Origin: Promethearchaeota archaeon
Lineage (GTDB): Archaea; Asgardarchaeota; Thorarchaeia; Thorarchaeales; Thorarchaeaceae
Length of the DNA stretch: 64,000 bases
NCBI GenBank assembly: GCA_014730275.1
Contig: WJIL01000068.1
Location: 19,324-83,323 of the forward strand
Direction: 5' to 3'
This document shows, one piece after another, positions 29,404 to 61,275 of the stretch; the stretch's first letter is position 1; every line of letters begins with the position of its first letter. The translations under genes and the position numbers were made by a program. The notes beneath the pieces are model-generated. The model saw nothing but the letters and a program-made list of their open reading frames with translations. It ran no database searches and had not been told where the DNA came from.

Positions 29404-29509
29404 GCCTCGGTGGCCAAGTGGTTGAAGGCGTCTGCTTCGTAAGCAGAAAACCGCGGGTTCGAAGTCCATTGCAATTTCTGTGTGGACGAAATTCCCGCCC
29501 GGGGCTCCA
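29404..29509 (+). tRNA. tRNA-Thr(CGU) with a predicted ~29-nt T-loop intron (about 29464-29492). CCA encoded.
   Basis: Hand fold:
- Acceptor GCCTCGG/CCGGGGC (one U-G).
- Anticodon stem TCTGC/GCAGA, loop TTCGTAA.
- T-stem GCGGG/CCCGC, loop TTCGAA^T.
- The insert has a GTCCA/TGGAC hairpin. Confidence 0.7.
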
Positions 29510-36738: not shown

Positions 36739-36814
36739 AGCCCTGTAGTGTAGCGGTCAATCATTTCGGGTTTTGGTCCCGGAGACCCAGGTTCGAATCC
36801 TGGCAGGGCTACCA
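36739..36814 (+). tRNA. tRNA-Gln(UUG), intron-less, CCA encoded
   Basis: Hand fold:
- Acceptor AGCCCTG/CAGGGCT.
- Anticodon stem TCGGG/CCCGG, loop TTTTGGT.
- T-arm CCAGG-TTCGAAT-CCTGG. Confidence 0.85.
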
Positions 36815-36816
36815 TC

Positions 36817-37671
36817 TTACCCTTTTTCATGTACGCTGAGGTCTGTGGGTTCTTTCATCTGGACCTTGAACAATCGCTTCACTTCTGTAAGGACCAATCG
36901 GTCACCATTAACAACCACGTCTATGGAAACCTGATTCTGTAAGCCCGATGTGGTTAGTTTCTTCTCAAGTATAGTCTGGACCTGAAAAACCCCGGCAGGA
37001 TTGTCCATATGAACAGTGATGAGTAAAGGCCGATTCTCACCATGGTCAAGAATAACATCTTTGATGGCAAGCGCGCTGACACTGTGTATGTCCACTTTCC
37101 CTTTCTGGAATGGCACTATGGTACGGCCTTTCGTCATATCGCACCCATCGCCAATTTTCGTGATGCCGGCCTCTAGTGTCAGGCACTGGGTATCATCATC
37201 ATGGGCGTAAATCCCATGGAGAATGAAACTTAGAATATCGGCAGCCTTGGCGGGATCTTCATACATCTTGTCAAGTTTGGGCCCAAGAATAGGACTCGCA
37301 AGTTGCATGGCAGAAATTGCGTGTTCTTGCCGGTGGACAACCATGCCAATGTCATGCAAATACGCAGAAGCAAGAACAATCATGCGTGCGTCATCGGTAT
37401 CGCCCAGATTTTCAGCAACGATGTTTGGCTTGAAAGTGTCATCAAGAATATCAAAAACTCTTAGGGCGTTCCATGTTGCTACTTCTGCATGTACCGGACC
37501 ATGGTCAGTGTATCCCAGACGCGATACTGCCATTCGATTGGCAGCACGAAGATACGATTGAATCTTAGGTGATGTTTTCAGATAATTGTACATTTCATAG
37601 GCCTTTGTGCTTGAAGAAAGAAGGTCACCCGCCGAAATAGCGTCACGGTCTAATGATTTATCATTGTTCAT
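36817..37671 (-). CDS. HD-domain metal-dependent phosphohydrolase
   Basis: HGPVHAEVAT and AYLHDIGM (H...HD) motifs. ATG at 37671 (MNNDKS...) preferred over the TTG at 37719. Confidence 0.75.
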   Translation of the reverse strand: MNNDKSLDRDAISAGDLLSSSTKAYEMYNYLKTSPKIQSYLRAANRMAVSRLGYTDHGPVHAEVATWNALRVFDILDDTFKPNIVAENLGDTDDARMIVLASAYLHDIGMVVHRQEHAISAMQLASPILGPKLDKMYEDPAKAADILSFILHGIYAHDDDTQCLTLEAGITKIGDGCDMTKGRTIVPFQKGKVDIHSVSALAIKDVILDHGENRPLLITVHMDNPAGVFQVQTILEKKLTTSGLQNQVSIDVVVNGDRLVLTEVKRLFKVQMKEPTDLSVHEKG

Positions 37672-37821
37672 CGATATGCCACCTCCAAAGAGGGGCATCA
37701 ACCCACGGAATGGTGCCAATTAAACATTTCACAATGTAATTTACGAGGAGATATCTTTTTAGCTGGATAGAGAGTCTTCCGCGTTCATTGGAAGTCCCTC
37801 CCGCAGTTTAGGCTCGTTTCA

Positions 37822-40791
37822 TTAGAGCTCTCCTGCTTCTTCTTCAATAGATAGGAGAATCCGATCTATCGCGCTCGTGGCTTCCTTTATTGTATTCAAG
37901 TAGTCTTGTCGCGACTTCTCAAATGCAGCTCTGCTAATCCGTTGTTTCTTCTTTCTTCGAAGTAGTTGTCGCAATCCAGCTTTGGCCCCTTCAACTTTCT
38001 CATTTTCCATCTCCAGTTGTGCAATCATATCACGATACTTGGAGCCATAGGAAATCAACTCATCCTTAACCGAAGGAAGCTCACTATCTATGTCCTCAAG
38101 CTTAGACTTGATGTCTTTCTCGCGAATCATGTATTCTTTCTTAGAGACCTTCCCTCTTCGTCTCGAGGCTTGCAGCTTCTCCAAGTCCATCTCAAGCGCC
38201 GTCTTCCTGGAATACATATCCGCAAACTCTCTGAGAAGTTCTGGTGGAGCTCCAACTTGCCTGCGTACTTCTTCAGTTGATTTGCCTACCACCGGAGCCG
38301 GGCCCTTGGGTCGTATCTTGCGATAAGATACATAGACTGTGGCAACCAACCCAATGATGAATGCGAATATGAGTGGCCTCGCTACAATTCCAATAGCTAA
38401 GTTATAGACGAGCCGTACTTCAGGTGGATTATATTGCGTTGTATTGAAAACGGTGTAGCGAAGTATTGTATCAAAAGCACCATAGAGCAATCTGTAGCTT
38501 CCTGAAGCGTCAACAACTGAGATTGAAGTTGAAAGGACAAGGTCAACTGTGTGCTTCTCTACAAGGATATGACTCAAAGTACCCATAGGTAGTTCAAGTA
38601 GGCTTCCACCCGGTGAGGAACTTGTATACGCGTCCAGTTTCACATAGTAGTCTATTTTGAAAGTATAATCCCATCCAGGTTTGAACTTGCCCTCACCAAA
38701 ACGGTCGCTCTGTAGATTGATCGTTAATTCAACGGATTCATTGAAGTTGTGTTCTGCTGTTGTCTGCGAATCTGCAAGTATACCTACTTTGTCATGAATT
38801 CGAATGCCTGACGCGTAGGCTGGAACTTCGAAAGATATCTTATCCTCGTTTGCGGTTCCGATATTGTGTATTGAAATTTCTTCAGTATAGACCAACCAAC
38901 CCCAAGAGTTCAGCTTCACACTTGTGCTCCGATCAGCCGTCAGATATGGTGTAAAAGAGCTCATGTTGAGAATGAACATCTCAGAAGACATTGGCTCCAA
39001 GTTCTCAGTGGTATCATCGACTTTTTCACTAGCCAAAGAGTCTCCGCTTCGGAGATTTGTGGCCAAGCTGGCACGCCTAAGAACATATGGAACAACAGGA
39101 TACTTCAAGAACTTCAATTCATAGATATTGCCTTCATCTTCAAGGAGTGTGTGAAGAGAGTGGAAGTACATCTCAGATGTGAAGTTGTATGTTTCCTCTA
39201 CAGAAACAGGCTCAAAGAAATGCAGTCGCCAATGCATGAGATCCGCATCATTAGATATTCGAACTACTTCAATTTCACGATCATTTGCATCTGTGGCTGA
39301 AATTGAAAGGAAATGAGGTTCCCATCTAGTGGGTAAGAACACCTCAATCGAGTTGATGGGGGCGGATCCATTGTTCTTGACAGAGAACGTATCCTCCACC
39401 TTTGTTTGATGGTGTTCCAAGGTACTAACGGTTCGTGATACCCTTAACCGCATCCCAAGCAGAGGAATCTGCGGCCAGTAGAAAATAACATCCACTGATG
39501 CAATACTAGTTACATTGGATGCATCGGTAGCATTGAACCAGATAGTATGTGTTCCATTATCATAATCCGAGAGGTCAGTCTTGGATTCCCAGAGATCGGA
39601 CTTGAAATTACGATAGAATTCAATCCATTCGCCATCATCAACTCTGTAGAAGCATCTTCGGACTAATCCATCATCAGACGCGTTGACCTTCAAAGTTGTA
39701 ACCAAACCAAGTATTGCATTTGGTTCAGGATTGACTATCTCCAAAACGGGGGCAGTGTTTGGAACGACCTGCATACTTAGTGGGTTGGTCCATTCCGTAT
39801 GTTGAGCAGGAAGCGAACTAAAATCATCATTCGGTCCACGAAGAAGAACAAAAGGAAATCGTGCATCAGTCGAGTTATACAGAGGAATGTCATAGGGATC
39901 TGTGCTGTTCATCCGAATGAAGTATTCAACCTGTGTTGTTCCGCCAACCAGACTTGCATTTGCGGAGAGTATTCTGCTTTGATTAGCATCTGGGAGATGC
40001 TGAAAAGTACTGATGCCATGCTCATCACTATAGGCTATCGAGCTCATATCTGCAGGGTTATCAAAACTCTCACCAATGCGCTTCAAAGTGATAACATATT
40101 CAAGGTCCTTTCCATACATGGGGTGTCCCGGTCTATTGTAGGCTTCTTCGGCGGGAATTATGAAATGGCGCTCTTCGCCAATACGCATGCCGATGATTTG
40201 GTCGATGTAAGCATTGAGAAGAGCATTCTCTTCAGCAACTTCGGGTCTCAAATCGCCAATAGGAGTATCAGATTCATCACCTGGTGCACTTCCCTCTTGC
40301 AAAAGGGTCCCATTTCGAGTATAAAGCTTGTAATCTACAGTGACCACATCATTTGGGGTTACACGTGGATAGCTCGATAGGGGGGTACCAGTAGCAGTTC
40401 CATAAATCAAATCACTCCCATTGAGACCATCTGTACTAAAAGTGCCGGTTTGATTCTTCCATCCAAGAGCTAACCAGCCAGATGTGGGGGCAGATAACCC
40501 TACGTATAGAACGGAGGAATTATGCTCGAAGAATACGGTTGTACCGGTTGCAGGATCAGTATAGTTTTGGCTATACTCTGTTGGGTCTATGATTCCATCT
40601 GCAAACCCGTAGTGGGTATCAACGTACGGAATCGATAGGTTCACGGGGGAATCCGCGGCCGATGCAATGTCTACAGGTTCAACATCAAACGCGGAATTGC
40701 CCCAGCTGTGGGGGTGAGACATGGTTGTTGCCATGCTGCTGGCAAAGAGTAATACCAGTAGTGCGAGTGTCACCGACCGTCTATGGAACAT
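37822..40791 (-). CDS. large secreted, membrane-anchored glycoprotein candidate: signal peptide, DOMON-like domain, FKBP-like PPIase domain, Ig-like region, ribophorin-I-like domain, TM helix, helical cytosolic tail
   Basis: - Start at ATG 40791 (MFHRRSVTLALLVLLFASSMA).
- GWLALGW...GSDLIYG (DOMON-like).
- VVTVDYKLYTRNG...EERHFIIPAEEAYN...LEYVITLKRI (FKBP-like).
- SVKLNSWGWLVYTEEISIHNIGT and RFGEGKFKPGWDYTFKIDYYV parallel human RPN1 [20 protein letters not shown] and RFPLFGGWKTHYIVGY.
- A TM helix is followed by a ~190-aa coiled-coil tail.
- Many N-x-S/T sequons. Confidence 0.7.
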   Translation of the reverse strand: MFHRRSVTLALLVLLFASSMATTMSHPHSWGNSAFDVEPVDIASAADSPVNLSIPYVDTHYGFADGIIDPTEYSQNYTDPATGTTVFFEHNSSVLYVGLSAPTSGWLALGWKNQTGTFSTDGLNGSDLIYGTATGTPLSSYPRVTPNDVVTVDYKLYTRNGTLLQEGSAPGDESDTPIGDLRPEVAEENALLNAYIDQIIGMRIGEERHFIIPAEEAYNRPGHPMYGKDLEYVITLKRIGESFDNPADMSSIAYSDEHGISTFQHLPDANQSRILSANASLVGGTTQVEYFIRMNSTDPYDIPLYNSTDARFPFVLLRGPNDDFSSLPAQHTEWTNPLSMQVVPNTAPVLEIVNPEPNAILGLVTTLKVNASDDGLVRRCFYRVDDGEWIEFYRNFKSDLWESKTDLSDYDNGTHTIWFNATDASNVTSIASVDVIFYWPQIPLLGMRLRVSRTVSTLEHHQTKVEDTFSVKNNGSAPINSIEVFLPTRWEPHFLSISATDANDREIEVVRISNDADLMHWRLHFFEPVSVEETYNFTSEMYFHSLHTLLEDEGNIYELKFLKYPVVPYVLRRASLATNLRSGDSLASEKVDDTTENLEPMSSEMFILNMSSFTPYLTADRSTSVKLNSWGWLVYTEEISIHNIGTANEDKISFEVPAYASGIRIHDKVGILADSQTTAEHNFNESVELTINLQSDRFGEGKFKPGWDYTFKIDYYVKLDAYTSSSPGGSLLELPMGTLSHILVEKHTVDLVLSTSISVVDASGSYRLLYGAFDTILRYTVFNTTQYNPPEVRLVYNLAIGIVARPLIFAFIIGLVATVYVSYRKIRPKGPAPVVGKSTEEVRRQVGAPPELLREFADMYSRKTALEMDLEKLQASRRRGKVSKKEYMIREKDIKSKLEDIDSELPSVKDELISYGSKYRDMIAQLEMENEKVEGAKAGLRQLLRRKKKQRISRAAFEKSRQDYLNTIKEATSAIDRILLSIEEEAGEL

Positions 40792-40969
40792 GCTCAAGAT
40801 ATGATCACCATGGTTTACTTGTTCGTGAAAATCCAGTTTACAATCAGGATGCTTCACGAACAATCCGCCCATCTTGTGTTTGGTTAAAATAGTTTCGGAC
40901 AATACAAGTGCCGTACAATTATTGATTCCTAGAGAAGTATTAAAAGGAGGTAGAAACTGACCGGGATAT

Positions 40970-42004
40970 GTGAGGTATGAGCTCGTGTTCACTATTCTGA
41001 TGGCGTTTCTCATATCCATAGTAATTACGGTAGTGTTCCTGCCCACCACAATAGAAATGTTAGAAGAAAGGAACAAATTCGCTGAAGACGTCCATAAAAA
41101 AGACAAGCAAATGGTTCCTAAAGGTGGGGGATTTGTTCTGCTGTTTGCTGTTGTCGCCGCCTTATTGATTATTGTCGGTTTCTCCACGTTCATCATGCAG
41201 AATGCGGTTAATCCAGCTATACTTGGTGCATTGGTCTCGATACTAATGGCGGGAATGGTTGGTCTCTTAGATGACAACCTAGATTTCAGAGATAGAACAA
41301 AAATCGCTTTGCCCCTAGTTGCATCTATTCCCCTTATGGCACTCAATGTGGGGACAACAACGATGTCAATACCTCTCATAGGTGATGTTAATCTACAGTG
41401 GGCATATCCATTACTAGTGGTCCCCCTTATGACAACATTCATTGTTGACAGTACAAACATGTATGGGGGAATGAATGGGCTTGAGTGTGGACTCAGCATC
41501 GTAAATTCATCGGCCATAGTAGTCTATGCATTGCTAACCCCAATACTCACAGGAAATGGTCTGGTTCAAAATCAAATGGACGGAGCAACAATAGCAGCTT
41601 CATTACTTGGTGCCTCGATTGTGTTCTTCCTTTTTAACAAGTACCCAGCAAAGGTTCTGCCAGGGGATGTTGGAAGATTACCAATAGGAGCAGCTATGGC
41701 CGCCTCCCTGATTATAGGCAATATGGATCGATTAGCTGTAATACTGTATTTGCCATTTTTACTGAATTTCATGATGTATCTTGTCTATAGATTGAAGGTA
41801 AAGAGAACAGGCATGGATTATCAGAAATTCGCAAAGCCAAAAGAAGATGGTAGTCTTGACGTTGTTGGTCCCTATACCATGTATTGGTTACTCCCCCACT
41901 TCTTTCAAAACGTAACCGAGAGGAAGAATGTATTTTTCTTGATACTTTTACAGGCCATATTGGCTTATGGAGGTGTCATTCTTTTACTCGTGGTTGGAAT
42001 CTAA
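40970..42004 (+). CDS. aglH: UDP-GlcNAc:dolichyl-phosphate GlcNAc-1-phosphate transferase (AglH / ALG7-type, MraY-WecA superfamily)
   Basis: 344 aa, polytopic, GTG start. GLLDDN, NMYGGMNGLECG (the NGLE form typical of archaeal/eukaryotic GPT) and LPGDVGRLPIG. Confidence 0.8.
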   Translation: MRYELVFTILMAFLISIVITVVFLPTTIEMLEERNKFAEDVHKKDKQMVPKGGGFVLLFAVVAALLIIVGFSTFIMQNAVNPAILGALVSILMAGMVGLLDDNLDFRDRTKIALPLVASIPLMALNVGTTTMSIPLIGDVNLQWAYPLLVVPLMTTFIVDSTNMYGGMNGLECGLSIVNSSAIVVYALLTPILTGNGLVQNQMDGATIAASLLGASIVFFLFNKYPAKVLPGDVGRLPIGAAMAASLIIGNMDRLAVILYLPFLLNFMMYLVYRLKVKRTGMDYQKFAKPKEDGSLDVVGPYTMYWLLPHFFQNVTERKNVFFLILLQAILAYGGVILLLVVGI

Positions 42005-42016
42005 AGAGTAGTGAGC

Positions 42017-43072
42017 CTAGGTCAGCTTATCTGAAAGATACACGTCAACGACATAATCCATACCATAACGACTGAATGCCTGTTGTTCAGCCTTCTTTCG
42101 TAGCTGCTTGAAATCGTCGATATATGCTTGCCATTTTGGAGTCTCGTAACGAACGTCTCGTTTAAGCTCATCCAAGCGCTTCATATCAGCATCCGTCATT
42201 GATTCAGTTGGCAAATCGTAGTTTACAATATCAGCAGCGGTAACACCAATCCACTGAGCTTCGGGGATGGTCAGACCCCTTATGTGAGCTGAACTTGCAC
42301 TTCCACAAATAATCACCCGTGCAATATGGAGTCCCCAGGGGTCACCATCTGTGAATATGTACAATGGAAGATTCAGGTGTTCATGAAGTCGTTTCATCAA
42401 CCGTCGTGTCGATCGTGGGGGTTGGCCTCCAAGCTGAACAAGGACAGCATTGAATGTTTCCCATGCTTTCGTTTCAATAAGGCGAGAGAACATGCCTCCA
42501 GATTCCACAGCGAGAATCATCTCTGCGTTGGTGTCCAATGGTTCTGCAGTCATTAGAGCTGGGCCTACTGGCAAACCATCCGGGCTTATAGTGAGGTCTA
42601 CTTCACGACCCTCATATCCAGGGACAGTGTACTCCATAGTAACACGCCCATATATTGAGGAATGTTCCTCAGGAAAAATCCCAAAATCTTCACGTGCCAA
42701 TCCAGTAAGGGATTCCAAATCAGCAACGATTCGGTCTGATTCCGATTGACTAGAGAAATCGATGTCTTCGCCCTCACTCGAGTAGTAGAGATCCCTGAGT
42801 GAGCTGGTACGCTGTGCACCGAGAAGCTTCTTTGCAAAAGCTGCAACCCACATTAGTTGAGAAAAGCTTTTGATATGTTTGATATTCTTGGAATCCCGTG
42901 TAATACTTGAGTCACCAAGAACAAATTGCCCTTTTGTTTTGTCAAAGACAATATTCCCCGTAGTCCGGTCAGGAAGCTCTAGAGTGGGAAACTCACCATC
43001 ACGAAGTGAATCCAGAATCTCCTTGCCCAGTTTTTTCAGAGCGTTTTGAGCATCGTCGAATTTAGACATCAA
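42017..43072 (-). CDS. top6A: DNA topoisomerase VI subunit A (Spo11 family)
   Basis: 351 aa. SLRDLYYSSEG active-site Tyr region. Toprim ILAVESGGMF and FTDGDPWG. Confidence 0.95.
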   Translation of the reverse strand: MMSKFDDAQNALKKLGKEILDSLRDGEFPTLELPDRTTGNIVFDKTKGQFVLGDSSITRDSKNIKHIKSFSQLMWVAAFAKKLLGAQRTSSLRDLYYSSEGEDIDFSSQSESDRIVADLESLTGLAREDFGIFPEEHSSIYGRVTMEYTVPGYEGREVDLTISPDGLPVGPALMTAEPLDTNAEMILAVESGGMFSRLIETKAWETFNAVLVQLGGQPPRSTRRLMKRLHEHLNLPLYIFTDGDPWGLHIARVIICGSASSAHIRGLTIPEAQWIGVTAADIVNYDLPTESMTDADMKRLDELKRDVRYETPKWQAYIDDFKQLRKKAEQQAFSRYGMDYVVDVYLSDKLT

Positions 43073-44576
43073 GATTCACCTCGAAGAGCTGTTCAACCAA
43101 AGAGTGAACTGAGGGTACTTCGTCCTCTTCTGAGAGCTCTGCTCCAAGTTCAGCAATGAGAGCAAGCTGCTGAGAATAACTTCTTGCTTCTTTGATTCTT
43201 TGAGCCCGTTTTTTCTTCACCTTTGTCATTCGTCGCAAACATCTACCGAGTTCTTTGTAGAGCAAAGTAAGATGAGATTCGATTTCCGCTTCAGTTGCCA
43301 CTGACTGTTTGCCAGCGGCTTTGTAAGGAACTCGGGTTGAGCAGAAATGAATAAACAAACCAACTTTTCTCGATTTTGTTAGACCGTATCTAGACCAATC
43401 AACTTCGTTGAGGGACTTTGTCATTACATCTTCACTGGCATCATAAAGAAGAGGAACTCTATTTGTGAAGCGGAACAAGCCAGGAGTCTTTGCTTTCCGT
43501 AATCTCCCGCCAATAGCAATTACTCCCTCAACAATGAATGGATGACCACCCCATTCTGATGGCCCTTTCTGTGCATAACCAACGTCTACGGCATCATATG
43601 TTTCAAGAACGGCATTCATGAACGGTTTCTCGCCTATCGGACTAAGAGAATCGATGGTTGGGCGACCCAACCCCTGGAAGTTCTGGAGAGCTGTGCTTAG
43701 CCGGCTTATGTCAGACCGCTCAAAATCGCCAACTTCTCGTTGAGGATTCATACCAAGGAATTCAATTATTTTAGAAGAAGTAACACGACCAACCTGTTGG
43801 AAAGATTTCCGAAGAAACTCCTGAAGTGGAGACTGAGCACATTTCTTGATCAGTCTTCGGAGTAGCTCCATATCGGCGGCATGAGGATGAGGTTTTGCAG
43901 AAACAGGAGGGGTGGGCAGTGTATCGCTGGATGGATGGATGGCGAATTGCTTTTCGCCATCTCGTACGAGCTCAATTTGAGAGTGGGGAGTGGAGACAGA
44001 AGTCAATCTGAGGTAATCAACTACTCGGTCATACGCTCTTGCAACTGCACCCTTCATGCTGATACGAACCGATGTGCCGACTTTATTTCGCTTAACCGAG
44101 TTTGAAGATACAATAATAGGCCTATTTTTTTCAACATCAATGAGAAGTTCATAGGTCCTGCCTGCCTCGTCATTCTCTGTGCAGGTATAAATCATAACAG
44201 GGGTTTCTGTAGTTATCTGGCCGTAGAGCACAGCCATAGTCACTCCAAGTCCAAAGGTACCACGTCTCTGGCGAGAGAGATACTTGCTACCGTAGAGAAC
44301 TCTGCCAAATGAATCAGCTACATGTGCATGAGGTAAGCCTTCACCATTGTCCGATACAGTGATAGTTACAATCCCTGAGGGGGCTTCATCGATTTCCACC
44401 TTAATCTCGGGTCTCTTACGTGCATCCTCGCAAGAATCAAGGCTGTTTTCTACCAGTTCACGGACCGTAGAATAGACAGCTTGTGTAGGATTGCCAAATC
44501 CTGCCATCTGGCGATTCCGATAGAAGAACTCCGCTGGTGAAATGCTGGCAAATACTCTGCTTGGATTTTGAGGCAT
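43062..44576 (-). CDS. top6B: DNA topoisomerase VI subunit B
   Basis: 504 aa. Bergerat-fold VRELVENSLDSCE, DNGEGL and GTFGLGVT. Overlaps the top6A start by 11 nt. Confidence 0.95.
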   Translation of the reverse strand: MPQNPSRVFASISPAEFFYRNRQMAGFGNPTQAVYSTVRELVENSLDSCEDARKRPEIKVEIDEAPSGIVTITVSDNGEGLPHAHVADSFGRVLYGSKYLSRQRRGTFGLGVTMAVLYGQITTETPVMIYTCTENDEAGRTYELLIDVEKNRPIIVSSNSVKRNKVGTSVRISMKGAVARAYDRVVDYLRLTSVSTPHSQIELVRDGEKQFAIHPSSDTLPTPPVSAKPHPHAADMELLRRLIKKCAQSPLQEFLRKSFQQVGRVTSSKIIEFLGMNPQREVGDFERSDISRLSTALQNFQGLGRPTIDSLSPIGEKPFMNAVLETYDAVDVGYAQKGPSEWGGHPFIVEGVIAIGGRLRKAKTPGLFRFTNRVPLLYDASEDVMTKSLNEVDWSRYGLTKSRKVGLFIHFCSTRVPYKAAGKQSVATEAEIESHLTLLYKELGRCLRRMTKVKKKRAQRIKEARSYSQQLALIAELGAELSEEDEVPSVHSLVEQLFEVNLDV

Positions 44577-46633: not shown

Positions 46634-47722
46634 TCATGTTGTGTTAACTGGTTGCGGAACATAGTACACCGTACCCTGTAATTTGACCGCCCATATCTTG
46701 TCTCCGTTCTCCAAATCGGAGGGCAACGAATCCCCGGGTAGATTCTCCACCTCATACGTTTGAGAATTCATCAGCTGAATTGGTTCTCCATAGGCCTTGG
46801 AGATAACCATATACTCTTGCTTATCGGATTCCGGGGCAAGGAATTCAATCTCTTGCCATTTGCTACTCCGTTGTGATACTGTAAATTCGCTTTTGTCTTC
46901 GAAACTGTAGCAAACCAGACCTCCCCGTCCCAAAGCACGGACCTGGCAGGGGCTACCAGCAACTTCCACAAAATCACCTTCCTTGAAGTGAGGTAATCGA
47001 AGGAGTATAGTTGTTCTATACTTCTCCTTTCCATCGGATTCTTGACCAATCAGTTTGTATGTTTGCTTGCGAGCAGCCATGTAACGGGATTCCAAATCAT
47101 CAGCAATCATTCTACACAGATGATTTGACCCAATCTTAAGATCAATGCCGTACTTGGTTCGGGTAATCTCATTTATGTATGCCATACTATCTTTGCCATA
47201 TTCCCCAATTGTCAGGTCGGTTGCCGTGTCAAGAATTTCGTCTTCTTCTGCCTTGGTGAGCTTTCGATCATCAGCGCGAATCTGTAATATGGCCTCATGG
47301 TATCCCCCTCTCATCATTCCACAGCTGTCACAAGTCCCATAGTCAAGTCTGACTTCGACATCGTGTATTTCGGTATGAGGGGGTAATTCAGGATGTGAAT
47401 GCCCTTGAGCAACCACTTCAATGTGCACAACTCGATCCAGTCTTTTCTGTGGCATCACAGAGTATGTCACATTTTCTCCAAGTACTTCGACTTGATCATC
47501 AAGAAGAATCTGCAATTGAAGGGCAAGAAGCTCCTCAGGGCTGGATATACGTTCTGTAATCTGTTTCCAGCGACCATGGATTTTGACAGCGCCACATCTA
47601 TCACAGATGAGCATACGTAGAGGTGTTTCTACCTTGAGAATAGGATGCTCTTCATTGTAGCATCCCTCGCATAAACCCTCAACTACAGCGGGTTTTCCAC
47701 ACAGGTAGCAGGGAGGTCTCAT
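46634..47722 (-). CDS. nmd3: NMD3-family 60S-subunit biogenesis protein homologue
   Basis: 362 aa. N-terminal CYLCGK...CEGCY and CDRCG zinc motifs. Confidence 0.8.
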   Translation of the reverse strand: MRPPCYLCGKPAVVEGLCEGCYNEEHPILKVETPLRMLICDRCGAVKIHGRWKQITERISSPEELLALQLQILLDDQVEVLGENVTYSVMPQKRLDRVVHIEVVAQGHSHPELPPHTEIHDVEVRLDYGTCDSCGMMRGGYHEAILQIRADDRKLTKAEEDEILDTATDLTIGEYGKDSMAYINEITRTKYGIDLKIGSNHLCRMIADDLESRYMAARKQTYKLIGQESDGKEKYRTTILLRLPHFKEGDFVEVAGSPCQVRALGRGGLVCYSFEDKSEFTVSQRSSKWQEIEFLAPESDKQEYMVISKAYGEPIQLMNSQTYEVENLPGDSLPSDLENGDKIWAVKLQGTVYYVPQPVNTT

Positions 47723-51400: not shown

Positions 51401-53623
<2,223 letters not shown>

Positions 53624-58868: not shown

Positions 58869-58983
58869 ATTATCCCAGCTCCATAGGATGCAAGAAGGAA
58901 ATGAAGTAATAGGCTTTTTACAGTATGTATTACTGGTGAATAGTGTGGCAAGAACCGTGGCAGGCACCGAGTCCTTTGTCAAG

Positions 58984-61275
58984 ATGAACCTGATCAAACC
59001 AAGAACAATAGAACATCGAGACTATCAGGTGAACCTAGCAGAAGCAGCAGCAAAAGAGAGTACGATGGTAGTTTTGAGTACCGGGCTAGGAAAAACAATC
59101 ATCGCTGCCCTATTGGCTGCAAAGAGGTTGACCAGGTATTCGAACTCTAAGGTGCTTTTTCTAGCGCCATCGCGACCCTTGGCCAATCAGCATGCCAGAT
59201 TCATGAAACAGGTGCTTACTATTGGTAGCGATTCCATTGTGTGTATGACTGGTGACGATGCACCCAGCGAGAGGCCTTCCATTTGGAAGAAATCGAAAAT
59301 CATAGTAATGACCCCTCAAGCATTGCAGAATGATTTAGTTCAAAATAGCTATGACCTTAGCAACGTATCTCTGATTGTATATGACGAGGCGCATAGGGGA
59401 GTAGGAAACTACGCATATACCTTCGTTGCAGAACTATACGAAAAACAAGCAGAGCATCCACTCAGCTTGGGCCTCACTGCCTCACCCGGTCACAAACCTG
59501 AACATATACGCCAAGTCTGCGAGAATCTTAATCTCACACAAATCGAAGTGCGAAATGAGGGTAGTCCCGATGTGAAGGACTATGTTGTATCGGTAGATAC
59601 AGATATTCGGTATGTTCGTTTGCCAGCTGAAATAGAGGTTCTCAGGGACATACTCTATGACTTGCTAGATGACTATGCACGACCCATCAAGAAGTATGGC
59701 TATTCGCTTTCAGATAGCAGACGAATGAGTAGGAGTGAAATTCTTGAAGTGCAGAGGGAAGTGCGAAGGGAGATAGGATCGTATACCGATCCCCCACGAC
59801 ATCTCTTCCTGATAATGAAGAATCTAACATCTGCAATCCGTATTGTTCAGCTGCTAGAATTTGTGGGTACCCAAGGTCTCACACCCACATTTCGCTATGT
59901 ACAGAATATGTACGAGGAGGTACGCAATAAGAAGAGCTCAAAGGGTCTTCAGGACTTAATATCCCGCCCGGAATTCGATCAATTTAGAAATCTGCTCGAG
60001 GCACTCATTGCCAAAGGCTATCGTCATCCCAAGGCAGATGCACTCCTTGAAATTATCAGTGAACAATTATCAGTCGATGAGGATTCGCGAATTCTGGTTT
60101 TTACCCGATATCGTGACACCGCAGCAGAAGTCGTTGATACAATTCAACAGCTGGACGAAGTACGGGCTAGCAAGTTTGTCGGTCAGAGCTCACGAGGCTC
60201 TGATAAGGGATTCACTCAGAAAAAGCAGTTAGAAGTACTCGAAGGCTTCAGAAGCAATGAGTTCAATGTCCTTGTTGCAACGCAAGTTGGGGAGGAAGGA
60301 CTGGATATACCTGAGTGTAATCTCGTCATCTTCTACGATTGCGTACCATCAATAGTGCCGTATATTCAGAGAAAAGGACGAACAGGAAGGAAGTATCCAG
60401 GTCAAGTTATCATATTTGTTGCAAAAGGCACACATGACGAATTTTACCACTGGAGCGTGAAAAAGAAACTCAAGAAAATGCCATCAGCATTGGAAGAGGC
60501 AGAAGATGACAGTCAGACAAGTTTGGAAGACTTCGCCAACGAGGGGGACCCGACACCAAAAGAGAAACCGAGTAGTCCACCAACTAGAACTAAGGATGGG
60601 AAAATCAAGATGATAGTGGACTCCCGCGAGCTGCCAACAGCTGTCGCCAGAGAACTAGCTAGACTTGATGTAGTCATATCAGGAGAAAGCCTTGAAATCG
60701 GTGACTATATCGCTTCAGAGGATGTAGCTGTTGAAAGGAAAGAAGCAAATGACTTCATAGAGTCTATGATCGACGGAAGATTGTTTTCACAACTTATTGA
60801 CCTGAAATCCACCTATCGAAGACCGGTACTTGTCATCGAAGGCGAACAAATTATTGGTTTAAGAGCGGTCAACCCAGCATCTATCTATGGCGCTCTTGCT
60901 TCAATTGCAATTCGAATTGGGGTTCCTATCATCTGGACACGGAACGAAGAGGAGACTGCAAACGTACTCTATCGTATTGCATATCTAGAACAGGAGAAGG
61001 AGAAGAAGCCAATACGAACGAGGCCAAGTGAATCAAAAAGCCGTGATGCTGATATGCTGGAGTATATCCTCTCAGGTTTCCCAGGCATCGATACAGTGAT
61101 TTCTCGGGCGATTCTCACTAAATTTGGTACGCTCGATAAAGTCTTCAGCGCTGACAAAAAAGAGTTGCAAAGCGTAAATGGTGTTGGCCCGAAAAAAGCC
61201 GGTAGAATCCGAAGATTGCTGCGTACAATCCATCCGTTCTATGAAGGGGAAGAAAAAGAGGATGATGCTGAATGA
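58984..61275 (+). CDS. hef: Hef (FANCM/XPF-like) helicase-nuclease
   Basis: ATG at 58984. Helicase motifs STGLGKT, DEAH and TASPG. C-terminal ERCC4 nuclease VDSRE...GDYI...ERKEANDF. HhH GVGPKKA. Confidence 0.9.
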   Translation: MNLIKPRTIEHRDYQVNLAEAAAKESTMVVLSTGLGKTIIAALLAAKRLTRYSNSKVLFLAPSRPLANQHARFMKQVLTIGSDSIVCMTGDDAPSERPSIWKKSKIIVMTPQALQNDLVQNSYDLSNVSLIVYDEAHRGVGNYAYTFVAELYEKQAEHPLSLGLTASPGHKPEHIRQVCENLNLTQIEVRNEGSPDVKDYVVSVDTDIRYVRLPAEIEVLRDILYDLLDDYARPIKKYGYSLSDSRRMSRSEILEVQREVRREIGSYTDPPRHLFLIMKNLTSAIRIVQLLEFVGTQGLTPTFRYVQNMYEEVRNKKSSKGLQDLISRPEFDQFRNLLEALIAKGYRHPKADALLEIISEQLSVDEDSRILVFTRYRDTAAEVVDTIQQLDEVRASKFVGQSSRGSDKGFTQKKQLEVLEGFRSNEFNVLVATQVGEEGLDIPECNLVIFYDCVPSIVPYIQRKGRTGRKYPGQVIIFVAKGTHDEFYHWSVKKKLKKMPSALEEAEDDSQTSLEDFANEGDPTPKEKPSSPPTRTKDGKIKMIVDSRELPTAVARELARLDVVISGESLEIGDYIASEDVAVERKEANDFIESMIDGRLFSQLIDLKSTYRRPVLVIEGEQIIGLRAVNPASIYGALASIAIRIGVPIIWTRNEEETANVLYRIAYLEQEKEKKPIRTRPSESKSRDADMLEYILSGFPGIDTVISRAILTKFGTLDKVFSADKKELQSVNGVGPKKAGRIRRLLRTIHPFYEGEEKEDDAE

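Follow-up and report, generated by a model that had tools for sequence, protein, structure and literature searches.

Introduction

What is the long, ribophorin-like membrane protein encoded on a thorarchaeal contig, and what could its N-terminal half, which carries an FKBP-like domain, be doing in the same polypeptide? The question is raised by a gene in a 64,000-nucleotide stretch of contig WJIL01000068.1 (assembly GCA_014730275.1, positions 19,324 to 83,323), hereafter the window. The window has a G+C content of ~45%, and the names of homologs place it in Thorarchaeota, an Asgard lineage. OST1/ribophorin I is a non-catalytic scaffold subunit of the oligosaccharyltransferase (OST), which sits beside the Sec translocon, and this N-glycosylation machine is common to eukaryotes and Asgard archaea. 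An earlier note on the window had read the gene as a ribophorin I-like protein with fused N-terminal domains. We find that it encodes an OST1 homolog, and we establish below the order of its domains, its predicted topology and its conservation. The structural claims of the earlier note that could be tested were all supported, with corrections in detail. The features of the gene are as follows.

37822..40797, minus strand: whole gene, Thorarchaeota long-form OST1/ribophorin I, 991 amino acids (aa) from the likely start codon TTG at 40797, stop codon at 37822-37824
40717..40797, minus strand: predicted signal peptide, aa 1-27, cleavage site approximate (N-terminal RR, then hydrophobic segment aa 8-27)
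40375..40644, minus strand: putative DOMON-like β-sandwich, first half, aa ~52-141 (AlphaFold2 strands; sub-threshold Pfam DOMON match across the FKBP excision junction)
40081..40362, minus strand: FKBP-type domain, aa ~146-239, short archaeal type without IF insert (Pfam FKBP_C; 1IX5, 3PR9)
39757..40071, minus strand: putative DOMON-like β-sandwich, second half, aa ~243-347 (AlphaFold2 strands; sub-threshold Pfam DOMON match)
39481..39750, minus strand: immunoglobulin (Ig)-like Big_7 domain, aa ~350-439 (Pfam Big_7; AlphaFold2 confidence ~90)
38401..39453, minus strand: ribophorin I extracytoplasmic region, two β-sandwich domains, aa ~449-799 (Pfam, AlphaFold2, Foldseek, hhalign)
38314..38400, minus strand: predicted single transmembrane (TM) helix, aa ~800-828, then RKIRPK (Kyte-Doolittle peak 2.44; AlphaFold2 helix 365-390 of the C-terminal model)
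37825..38313, minus strand: predicted cytoplasmic tail, linker and four-helix bundle, aa ~829-991 (AlphaFold2, 8WHN match, conservation, no sequons)

The C-terminal half is a ribophorin I/OST1 homolog

The earlier note had proposed that the C-terminal part of the protein (~520 aa) is homologous to ribophorin I, to be checked against the Pfam profile and, by way of an AlphaFold model, against OST structures. Both comparisons bear the proposal out, for the last ~540 aa. Pfam Ribophorin_I (PF04597) matches residues 650-754 at 32.8 bits, above its curated cut-off of 25 (E=5.5e-8); Pfam positions of the window protein are given here and below in the 989-aa numbering that begins with the ATG at 40791. 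An AlphaFold2 model of aa 436-989, built from an 11-sequence alignment (mean predicted local distance difference test [pLDDT] 82.5), contains two β-sandwiches, then a long helix that coincides with the hydrophobic segment and, beyond a disordered linker, four further long helices, with a pLDDT of 80-93 across the ribophorin extracytoplasmic region. In a Foldseek comparison of this model with the PDB, the best eight chains were all human RPN1 or yeast Ost1 (E from 7e-29 to 3e-17). The human OST-A entries (E=7e-29 and 3e-23) aligned over ~600 columns, TM helix and tail included, and the yeast Ost1 entries followed at E of 3e-20 to 3e-17; for the tail-less RPN1/Ost1 chains the TM-score normalized to the target was 0.58-0.62. 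The next fold was that of an integrin, at E of 3e-8.

Profile comparisons gave the same result. A pan-Asgard profile of 84 Asgard family members, with the window protein as its first row, aligned with human RPN1 from end to end (residues 9-604), tail included, at E=1.4e-50, and with yeast Ost1 at E=8e-24. With hhalign, a Thorarchaeota profile reached human RPN1 (sequence from PDB 6S7O) at E=3e-4 over the luminal part. Two luminal blocks that had earlier been paired with human RPN1 reappear both in this alignment and in that of the pan-Asgard profile: "...VKLNSWGWLVYTEEISIHNIG", which pairs with a human stretch of 21 letters, and "DRFGEGKFKPGWDYTF", which pairs with human "PRFPLFGGWKTHY". A search of the whole protein against NCBIfam returned only a chance-level SMC-related match, located in the tail. 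The C-terminal half is a complete ribophorin I/OST1 homolog.

Human RPN1 (6S7O chain E, 8B6L chain O) has the same architecture as this half, including the cytosolic helical bundle, at ~13% identity, but it lacks an N-terminal extension and resides in the endoplasmic reticulum (ER) membrane within an OST of 8-9 subunits. Yeast Ost1 (6EZN, 6C26, 8AGB) shares the two luminal β-sandwiches and the TM helix but ends just after the latter, the alignment stopping at profile position 424. As yeast Ost1 is without the bundle, the Thorarchaeota protein resembles the human protein more than the yeast one at its C-terminal end.

Membrane topology and the cytoplasmic tail

The protein has only two hydrophobic segments by Kyte-Doolittle analysis, aa 8-27 and 796-828. 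The part ahead of the TM helix carries 19 N-X-S/T sequons, compared with 7.5 ± 2.5 (maximum 16) in 2000 shuffled sequences, and 12 of the 19 are kept in at least 80% of homologs; the tail contains none. This pattern fits a predicted type I membrane protein with an outward, glycosylated ectodomain and a cytoplasmic tail. The cytoplasmic side, which the earlier note had also assigned to the tail, is predicted because of the distribution of sequons together with hydropathy, and the RKIRPK that follows the TM helix agrees with it.

That the tail forms a helical bundle is backed by the four helices of the AlphaFold2 model and by its match (aa ~847-979) to PDB 8WHN, "Ribophorin 1 superfamily protein", at E=9.8e-8 with a single sequence and 3.5e-10 with a profile. 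The entry 8WHN is the crystal structure of the OST1 cytoplasmic domain of the Lokiarchaeon MK-D1 (Carilo et al. 2024, PMC11417166). That domain is a four-helix bundle with human topology; in pull-downs, human ribosomes were recovered with it but not with the extracellular part (PMC11417166). Full-length MK-D1 OST1 (WP_147663064.1, "Ca. Prometheoarchaeum syntrophicum") has in common with the window protein a signal peptide, the ribophorin ectodomain, one TM helix and the cytoplasmic four-helix bundle, and the exhaustive search described below groups the two in one Asgard OST1 family. Among archaeal OST1 proteins, it is the MK-D1 tail that has been reported to pull down ribosomes (PMC11417166).

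A tail-only pan-Asgard profile scored 23.2 bits on the human RPN1 tail, compared with 0.5 ± 2.1 bits (maximum 8.4) on 500 shuffled tails. In the pan-Asgard alignment, the consensus "IDrii" at the tail end falls on human "IDHIL", which upholds the likeness of the C-terminus to that of human RPN1 noted before. Judged from these profiles, the kinship of the Thorarchaeota tail with the human tail is real but transitive, by way of other Asgard sequences. No other region of the protein is as well conserved within Thorarchaeota as the tail (column conservation 0.75-0.92 versus 0.5-0.7 elsewhere), and the stretch "GAKAGLRQLL.RKKKQRISR.AFE" is nearly invariant in the alignment.

The retained tail had been singled out as a novelty deserving attention. 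We do not follow this assessment, as the equivalent MK-D1 domain has already been crystallized and its pull-down of ribosomes shown (PMC11417166). Both the presence of an OST1 homolog in Asgard archaea and its retained tail are already known, and the window leaves unchanged the picture of a ribosome-binding tail that was obtained from one Lokiarchaeon.

The N-terminal module

The N-terminal half had been described as a DOMON-like β-sandwich followed by an extracytoplasmic FKBP-like domain. The FKBP-like domain stands, with Pfam FKBP_C (PF00254) matching residues 144-237 at 27.6 bits (curated cut-off 21.1). The best solved relatives of this segment are the archaeal FKBPs 1IX5 and 3PR9, in a weak match (E=0.047), and the domain is, as far as its sequence tells, of the archaeal/SlyD lineage. 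It shares the motifs "GM.vGE...iP.e.AY" and "H.l.GKdL.f" with MtFKBP17 (1IX5) and Methanocaldococcus jannaschii FKBP26 (3PR9/3PRB). Those proteins are cytoplasmic and carry the IF insert, whereas the window FKBP would be extracytoplasmic, is without the insert and appears nested in another domain. Aligned with FKBP12, the pocket keeps Y26, Y82 and H87 and has the replacements W59 to Y, F99 to Y and F36 to L.

The sandwich was found only below threshold. For the intact protein, Pfam lists no DOMON (PF03351) match up to E=1. When the FKBP segment was excised and its flanks joined, DOMON was the sole recurring Pfam match, in 6 of 13 constructs, at E of 0.0011-0.17 and below the cut-off (best score 19.6 bits versus 32.7). 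The longer matches cross the excision junction; one of them aligns residues 49-169 with positions 11-115 of the 124-position model. Because DOMON matches appear only upon excision of the FKBP and span the junction, a loop of a DOMON-like sandwich apparently hosts the FKBP; the earlier order of one domain after the other would give way to a nested arrangement. An AlphaFold2 model of the N-terminal half (aa 40-446, pLDDT 66.6) has about ten β-strands, some ahead of the FKBP segment and some behind it. The FKBP-excised sandwich profile found nothing among PDB sequences and only chance-level matches in NCBIfam, and we apply the DOMON label with low confidence.

Between this module and the ribophorin part lies an Ig-like domain that the earlier domain list did not include. 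It matches Pfam Big_7 (PF17957) over residues 348-417 at 30.2 bits (curated cut-off 24.1), and it is the best-modeled part of the N-terminal half (pLDDT ~90).

Distribution in Asgard archaea

An exhaustive profile search with the C-terminal half against 1.84 billion protein representatives recovered 389 family members. Most of these are 550-630 aa long and match from residue ~30-60 to the end of the tail; named examples of this size come from Odinarchaeia and "Asgardarchaeia". The Loki-type class, of ~607 aa, is without the FKBP, the sandwich and the Ig module; in one of its members (P0169), the last 159 residues (449-607) align with 8WHN positions 3-161 at E=4.6e-40. A class of ~980 aa, in which the match begins near residue 433, consists only of the Thorarchaeota clusters P0039 and P0125. 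A further protein (P0130), of 631 aa and with its match at residues 414-625, looks like a long form that has been truncated. The divergent P0125 is collinear with the window protein over its whole length at 32% identity, and its FKBP_C match, in the same position, scores 50.8 bits. At the P0125 locus (L005, 6763-9795), an actin-family gene and a gene with weak matches to BBS2/BBS7 β-propellers lie a few kb downstream, both typical Asgard eukaryotic-signature proteins.

A locus scan of one genome per species returned 76 loci, one per genome and nearly all labeled Thorarchaeota, with search patterns that are specific to the Thorarchaeota tail and that plain OST1 paralogs would escape. The N-terminal module is present in frame in all 64 loci with enough contig, the other 12 of the 76 being cut by contig ends. 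The OST1 proteins of 550-630 aa in Odin-, Loki- and other Asgard archaea lack the module. On a contig with a plain OST1 (L004), the GcvP identities are 54% and 61%, versus 59-71% among Thorarchaeota; the contig may come from a sister lineage or from a relative of Thorarchaeota that bears a paralog. A fusion of FKBP to an archaeal ribophorin is not described in the searchable literature, relative to which the Thorarchaeota-wide N-terminal module on OST1 is new.

Two of the loci carry unexpected labels. One (L022) is labeled Hermodarchaeota yet has a typical Thorarchaeota-type gene, at 52% identity. The other (L069, CAYTND010000390.1, 2705 bp), filed under "uncultured Pirellulales bacterium", encodes a Thorarchaeota OST1 tail region at 54% identity and is probably a binning contaminant.

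More than 120 full-length homologs, at 48-92% identity, carry the public names "FKBP-type peptidyl-prolyl cis-trans isomerase" or "Ig-like domain-containing protein" or are called hypothetical; "ribophorin" or "OST1" appears in no public name in our list of Thorarchaeota long-form homologs. The Loki-type OST1 (P0169, P0144) has no Pfam match at E≤0.01. Surveys by name or by Pfam can miss OST1 for these two reasons. Ost1 has been reported to be absent from P. syntrophicum (PMC11284389), and part of the OST1 of that organism has been crystallized (PMC11417166); the conflict between the two reports may stem from the invisibility of Loki-type OST1 to Pfam.

Gene start, divergent neighbor and intergenic region

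The earlier note began the gene with the ATG at 40791, which gives a 989-aa reading frame ending at 37822 on the minus strand. An upstream alignment of 38 Thorarchaeota loci shows two invariant features, the Shine-Dalgarno sequence GGTGA and, 6-7 nt beyond it, a TTG. On this basis the start codon is most likely the TTG at 40797, two codons upstream of the ATG, which would replace the earlier start and give a protein of 991 aa. Its N-terminus, "MSMFHRR...", resembles that of a homolog that is 92% identical (P0001). A longer, mechanically called open reading frame (ORF) of 1231 aa (37822-41517, minus strand) was rejected as an artifact of stop-free sequence; it runs antisense over the start of the neighboring gene, and its extension is not conserved as coding sequence.

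That neighbor is divergently transcribed, and the two features upstream of OST1 are the following.

40798..40969, no strand: divergent intergenic region (B recognition element [BRE]/TATA-like element, conserved block, GGTGA; alignments of 62 and 38 loci)
40970..42004, plus strand: candidate AglH/ALG7-type N-acetylglucosamine-1-phosphate (GlcNAc-1-P) transferase, GT4 family, 344 aa (PF00953; DPAGT1)

The earlier assignment of the neighbor to the AglH/ALG7 type is supported. The protein matches Pfam Glycos_transf_4 (PF00953) at E=6e-27, and among solved structures human DPAGT1 is closest to it (E=2e-16, versus 3e-10 for MraY); NCBIfam gave only sub-threshold MraY matches. It carries "GGMNGLE", where DPAGT1 has "INGLE". 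In common with DPAGT1/ALG7 it has PF00953, but it is shorter (344 versus 408 aa). We regard the gene as a candidate GlcNAc-1-P transferase of the GPT/ALG7/AglH branch. It lies divergently upstream of OST1 in all 58 loci with enough sequence, and the pairing is kept in the divergent P0125 lineage, whose downstream synteny has changed.

In those 58 genomes the spacer between the two genes, counted from the ATG, is 165-228 bp (median 178). The 178 bp given earlier for the window is correct from that codon; with a start at the TTG, the spacer is therefore 172 bp. On the minus strand, ~95 nt ahead of the start of OST1, a conserved BRE/TATA-like element, "CCGAAA-CTATTTTAA", occupies ~40886-40900 and precedes a conserved block whose consensus reads "CCAGAAGCTCGAGCGCATCGTTCG" (window ~40830-40915, minus strand). 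Element and block are conserved among genomes whose proteins are only ~50% identical. This stretch may serve as an initiator region or be bound by a regulator. RNAalifold found no consensus RNA structure in the conserved 5' region, and Rfam no match there; we accordingly propose no RNA element.

Possible role of the fused protein

We consider it likely that the protein is the Thorarchaeota ortholog of OST1/ribophorin I, with a tail that would dock the ribosome and an outward FKBP module that would act at the exit of the translocon and OST. OST1 would be situated in the archaeal cytoplasmic membrane, its TM helix and ectodomain beside AglB at the Sec translocon. By inference from MK-D1 and human RPN1, the four-helix bundle would dock a translating ribosome, so that chains leaving SecY meet AglB/STT3. 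Thorarchaeota have added an outward N-terminal module, with an FKBP apparently nested in a DOMON-like sandwich and then an Ig-like spacer domain, and this module is conserved through the whole Thorarchaeota lineage, down to 32% identity. It would place a prolyl isomerase or peptide-binding chaperone, possibly with a ligand- or glycan-binding sandwich, at the translocon-OST exit, where it could act on emerging chains or glycans and couple folding control to N-glycosylation. OST1 and the GlcNAc-1-P transferase might be co-regulated from a common promoter region of ~175 bp.

Ribosome binding by the Thorarchaeota tail and membership in an OST complex are what we infer by analogy with the better-known proteins. 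To our knowledge, membership of OST1 in an OST complex containing STT3/AglB has been published only for eukaryotes. In the eukaryotic OST, malectin, which is bound to ribophorin I, and the thioredoxin subunits OST3/6 (TUSC3/MagT1) are separate luminal partners. The likeness of the Thorarchaeota module to these is one of functional analogy only; the folds differ, the partners are separate polypeptides, and we claim no homology. The occurrence of an FKBP/sandwich/Ig module on OST1 in a whole Asgard lineage would be a natural "Rosetta stone" fusion linking folding catalysis to OST. If this is true, the fused isomerase-OST1 would be a prokaryotic counterpart, reached by a different route, of co-translocational folding and quality control in the ER.

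Several results weigh against this interpretation. A Thorarchaeota-only profile of the C-terminal half, searched against PDB sequences, found 8WHN only and did not reach human RPN1 at E≤1, so the broader pan-Asgard profile was needed. The Thorarchaeota-only tail profile scored 2.8 bits on the human tail, a value reached by 53 of 500 shuffles. The model of the N-terminal half is mediocre (pLDDT 66.6) and in Foldseek yields generic Ig-like, adhesin and receptor folds, with no DOMON-, CBM (carbohydrate-binding module)- or FKBP-specific match. DOMON never attains its Pfam cut-off, on the intact protein or on FKBP-excised constructs. In the main Thorarchaeota clade the equivalent of FKBP12 Asp37 is Gln, and the window FKBP has an extra loop at this site. 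Among the window ORFs of at least 600 aa, which include those for a histidine kinase, CDC48, a PUA-PAPS reductase and Hef, there is no AglB/STT3, and none of 10 scanned window proteins matched an OST family, with the smaller ORFs, a possible place for OST3/6, scanned in part. Finally, the whole region is syntenic in Thorarchaeota, and adjacency to the GT4 gene alone is therefore weak evidence of a functional link.

The fullest version of our proposal holds that a ribosome-docking OST1 has been joined directly to a functional prolyl isomerase or chaperone and to a sandwich that binds a ligand, coupling translocation, N-glycosylation and folding catalysis, with the GT4 gene co-regulated from a shared promoter. 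This version is tentative. Catalysis by the FKBP of the main clade is uncertain because of the Gln at the Asp37 equivalent and the extra loop. It is likewise conceivable, though doubtful, that the module is structural and not catalytic, comprising a degenerate or binding FKBP that serves as a stalk through the envelope or as a glycan binder, on a C-terminal half that is still OST1. The Gln substitution, the modest FKBP_C score of 27.6 bits, the lack of the IF chaperone insert, the many sequons at conserved sites and the adhesin- or Ig-like Foldseek neighbors of the N-terminal half would all suit such a role. However, the aromatic pocket is invariant in the aligned Thorarchaeota (Y26, Y82 and H87 kept, W59 and F99 conservatively replaced by Y), and the divergent P0125 lineage keeps the canonical Phe-Asp at the F36-D37 positions and scores 50.8 bits, which argues for selection on an FKBP-type binding site.

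A third explanation, in which the protein is an independent surface foldase or receptor that uses a ribophorin-like scaffold outside the OST-translocon, its tail serving some other cytoplasmic partner, seems to us unlikely. It would accord with the lack of an OST catalytic subunit among the large window ORFs and with the public annotation of the homologs as FKBP isomerases. However, homology to RPN1 runs from end to end, TM helix and tail included, and the tail, homologous to a ribosome-binding domain, is the most conserved part. There is also one locus in each of 76 genomes, although the tail-specific patterns could miss a plain paralog, and in 58 of 58 genomes OST1 stays paired with the enzyme that opens the N-glycan pathway.

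It is very improbable that the likeness to ribophorin is spurious, a matter of generic Ig-like repeats and an unrelated coiled coil: the ~13% pairwise identity to RPN1 in the Foldseek alignments, the failure of the Thorarchaeota-only profile to find RPN1 in the PDB and the weak matches of the tail to coiled-coil proteins such as Beclin-1 might suggest it, but it is refuted by the E values of RPN1/Ost1 and of the next fold, which lie some nine to twenty orders of magnitude apart, the Pfam match above cut-off, the pan-Asgard profile at E=1.4e-50, the match of the tail to 8WHN and the finding that 0 of 500 shuffled human tails reach the real score. An assembly or gene-calling artifact as the origin of the FKBP/sandwich-OST1 fusion is hardly credible, with nothing found in its favor, and is refuted by one uninterrupted frame in 64 of 64 independent assemblies, by more than 120 protein clusters and by the lineage that is still collinear at 32% identity (P0125). 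For the reading that we favor, an OST1 ortholog with a ribosome-docking tail and an outward FKBP module, the FKBP-sandwich fragment and the tail are small enough for direct biochemistry.

Downstream gene and the wider window

The gene following OST1 and the main landmarks of the surrounding region are listed here.

36817..37719, minus strand: HD-like gene, possible operon partner (Pfam HD exactly at cut-off, 22 bits; same strand, directly downstream in 68 of 68 loci)
42017-44576: topoisomerase VI A and B
46634-47722: NMD3
51428-53623: CDC48-type AAA ATPase
58888-61275: Hef-like helicase-ERCC4 nuclease

The HD-like gene has ~70% identity across Thorarchaeota and is more conserved than OST1; its product has a weak PDB match to the EF1143 dNTPase (2O6I). 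It may be co-transcribed with OST1. The trio of AglH, long OST1 and HD-like gene is invariant in the genomes checked and, with its conserved promoter region, offers a target for studies of the regulation of Asgard N-glycosylation. A wider block of NMD3, eIF1A, RIO1, KH, TopoVI B/A ... Trm112 and GcvP is syntenic in Thorarchaeota, and the CDC48, Hef, NMD3 and TopoVI neighbors are consistent with an Asgard chromosome.

Two tRNA candidates were seen in the window. One, at 29404-29473 on the plus strand, scores 29.9 bits with the Rfam tRNA model (gathering score 29 bits) and is not called by ARAGORN. The other, a tRNA-Gln at 36739-36814, is called by both Rfam and ARAGORN.

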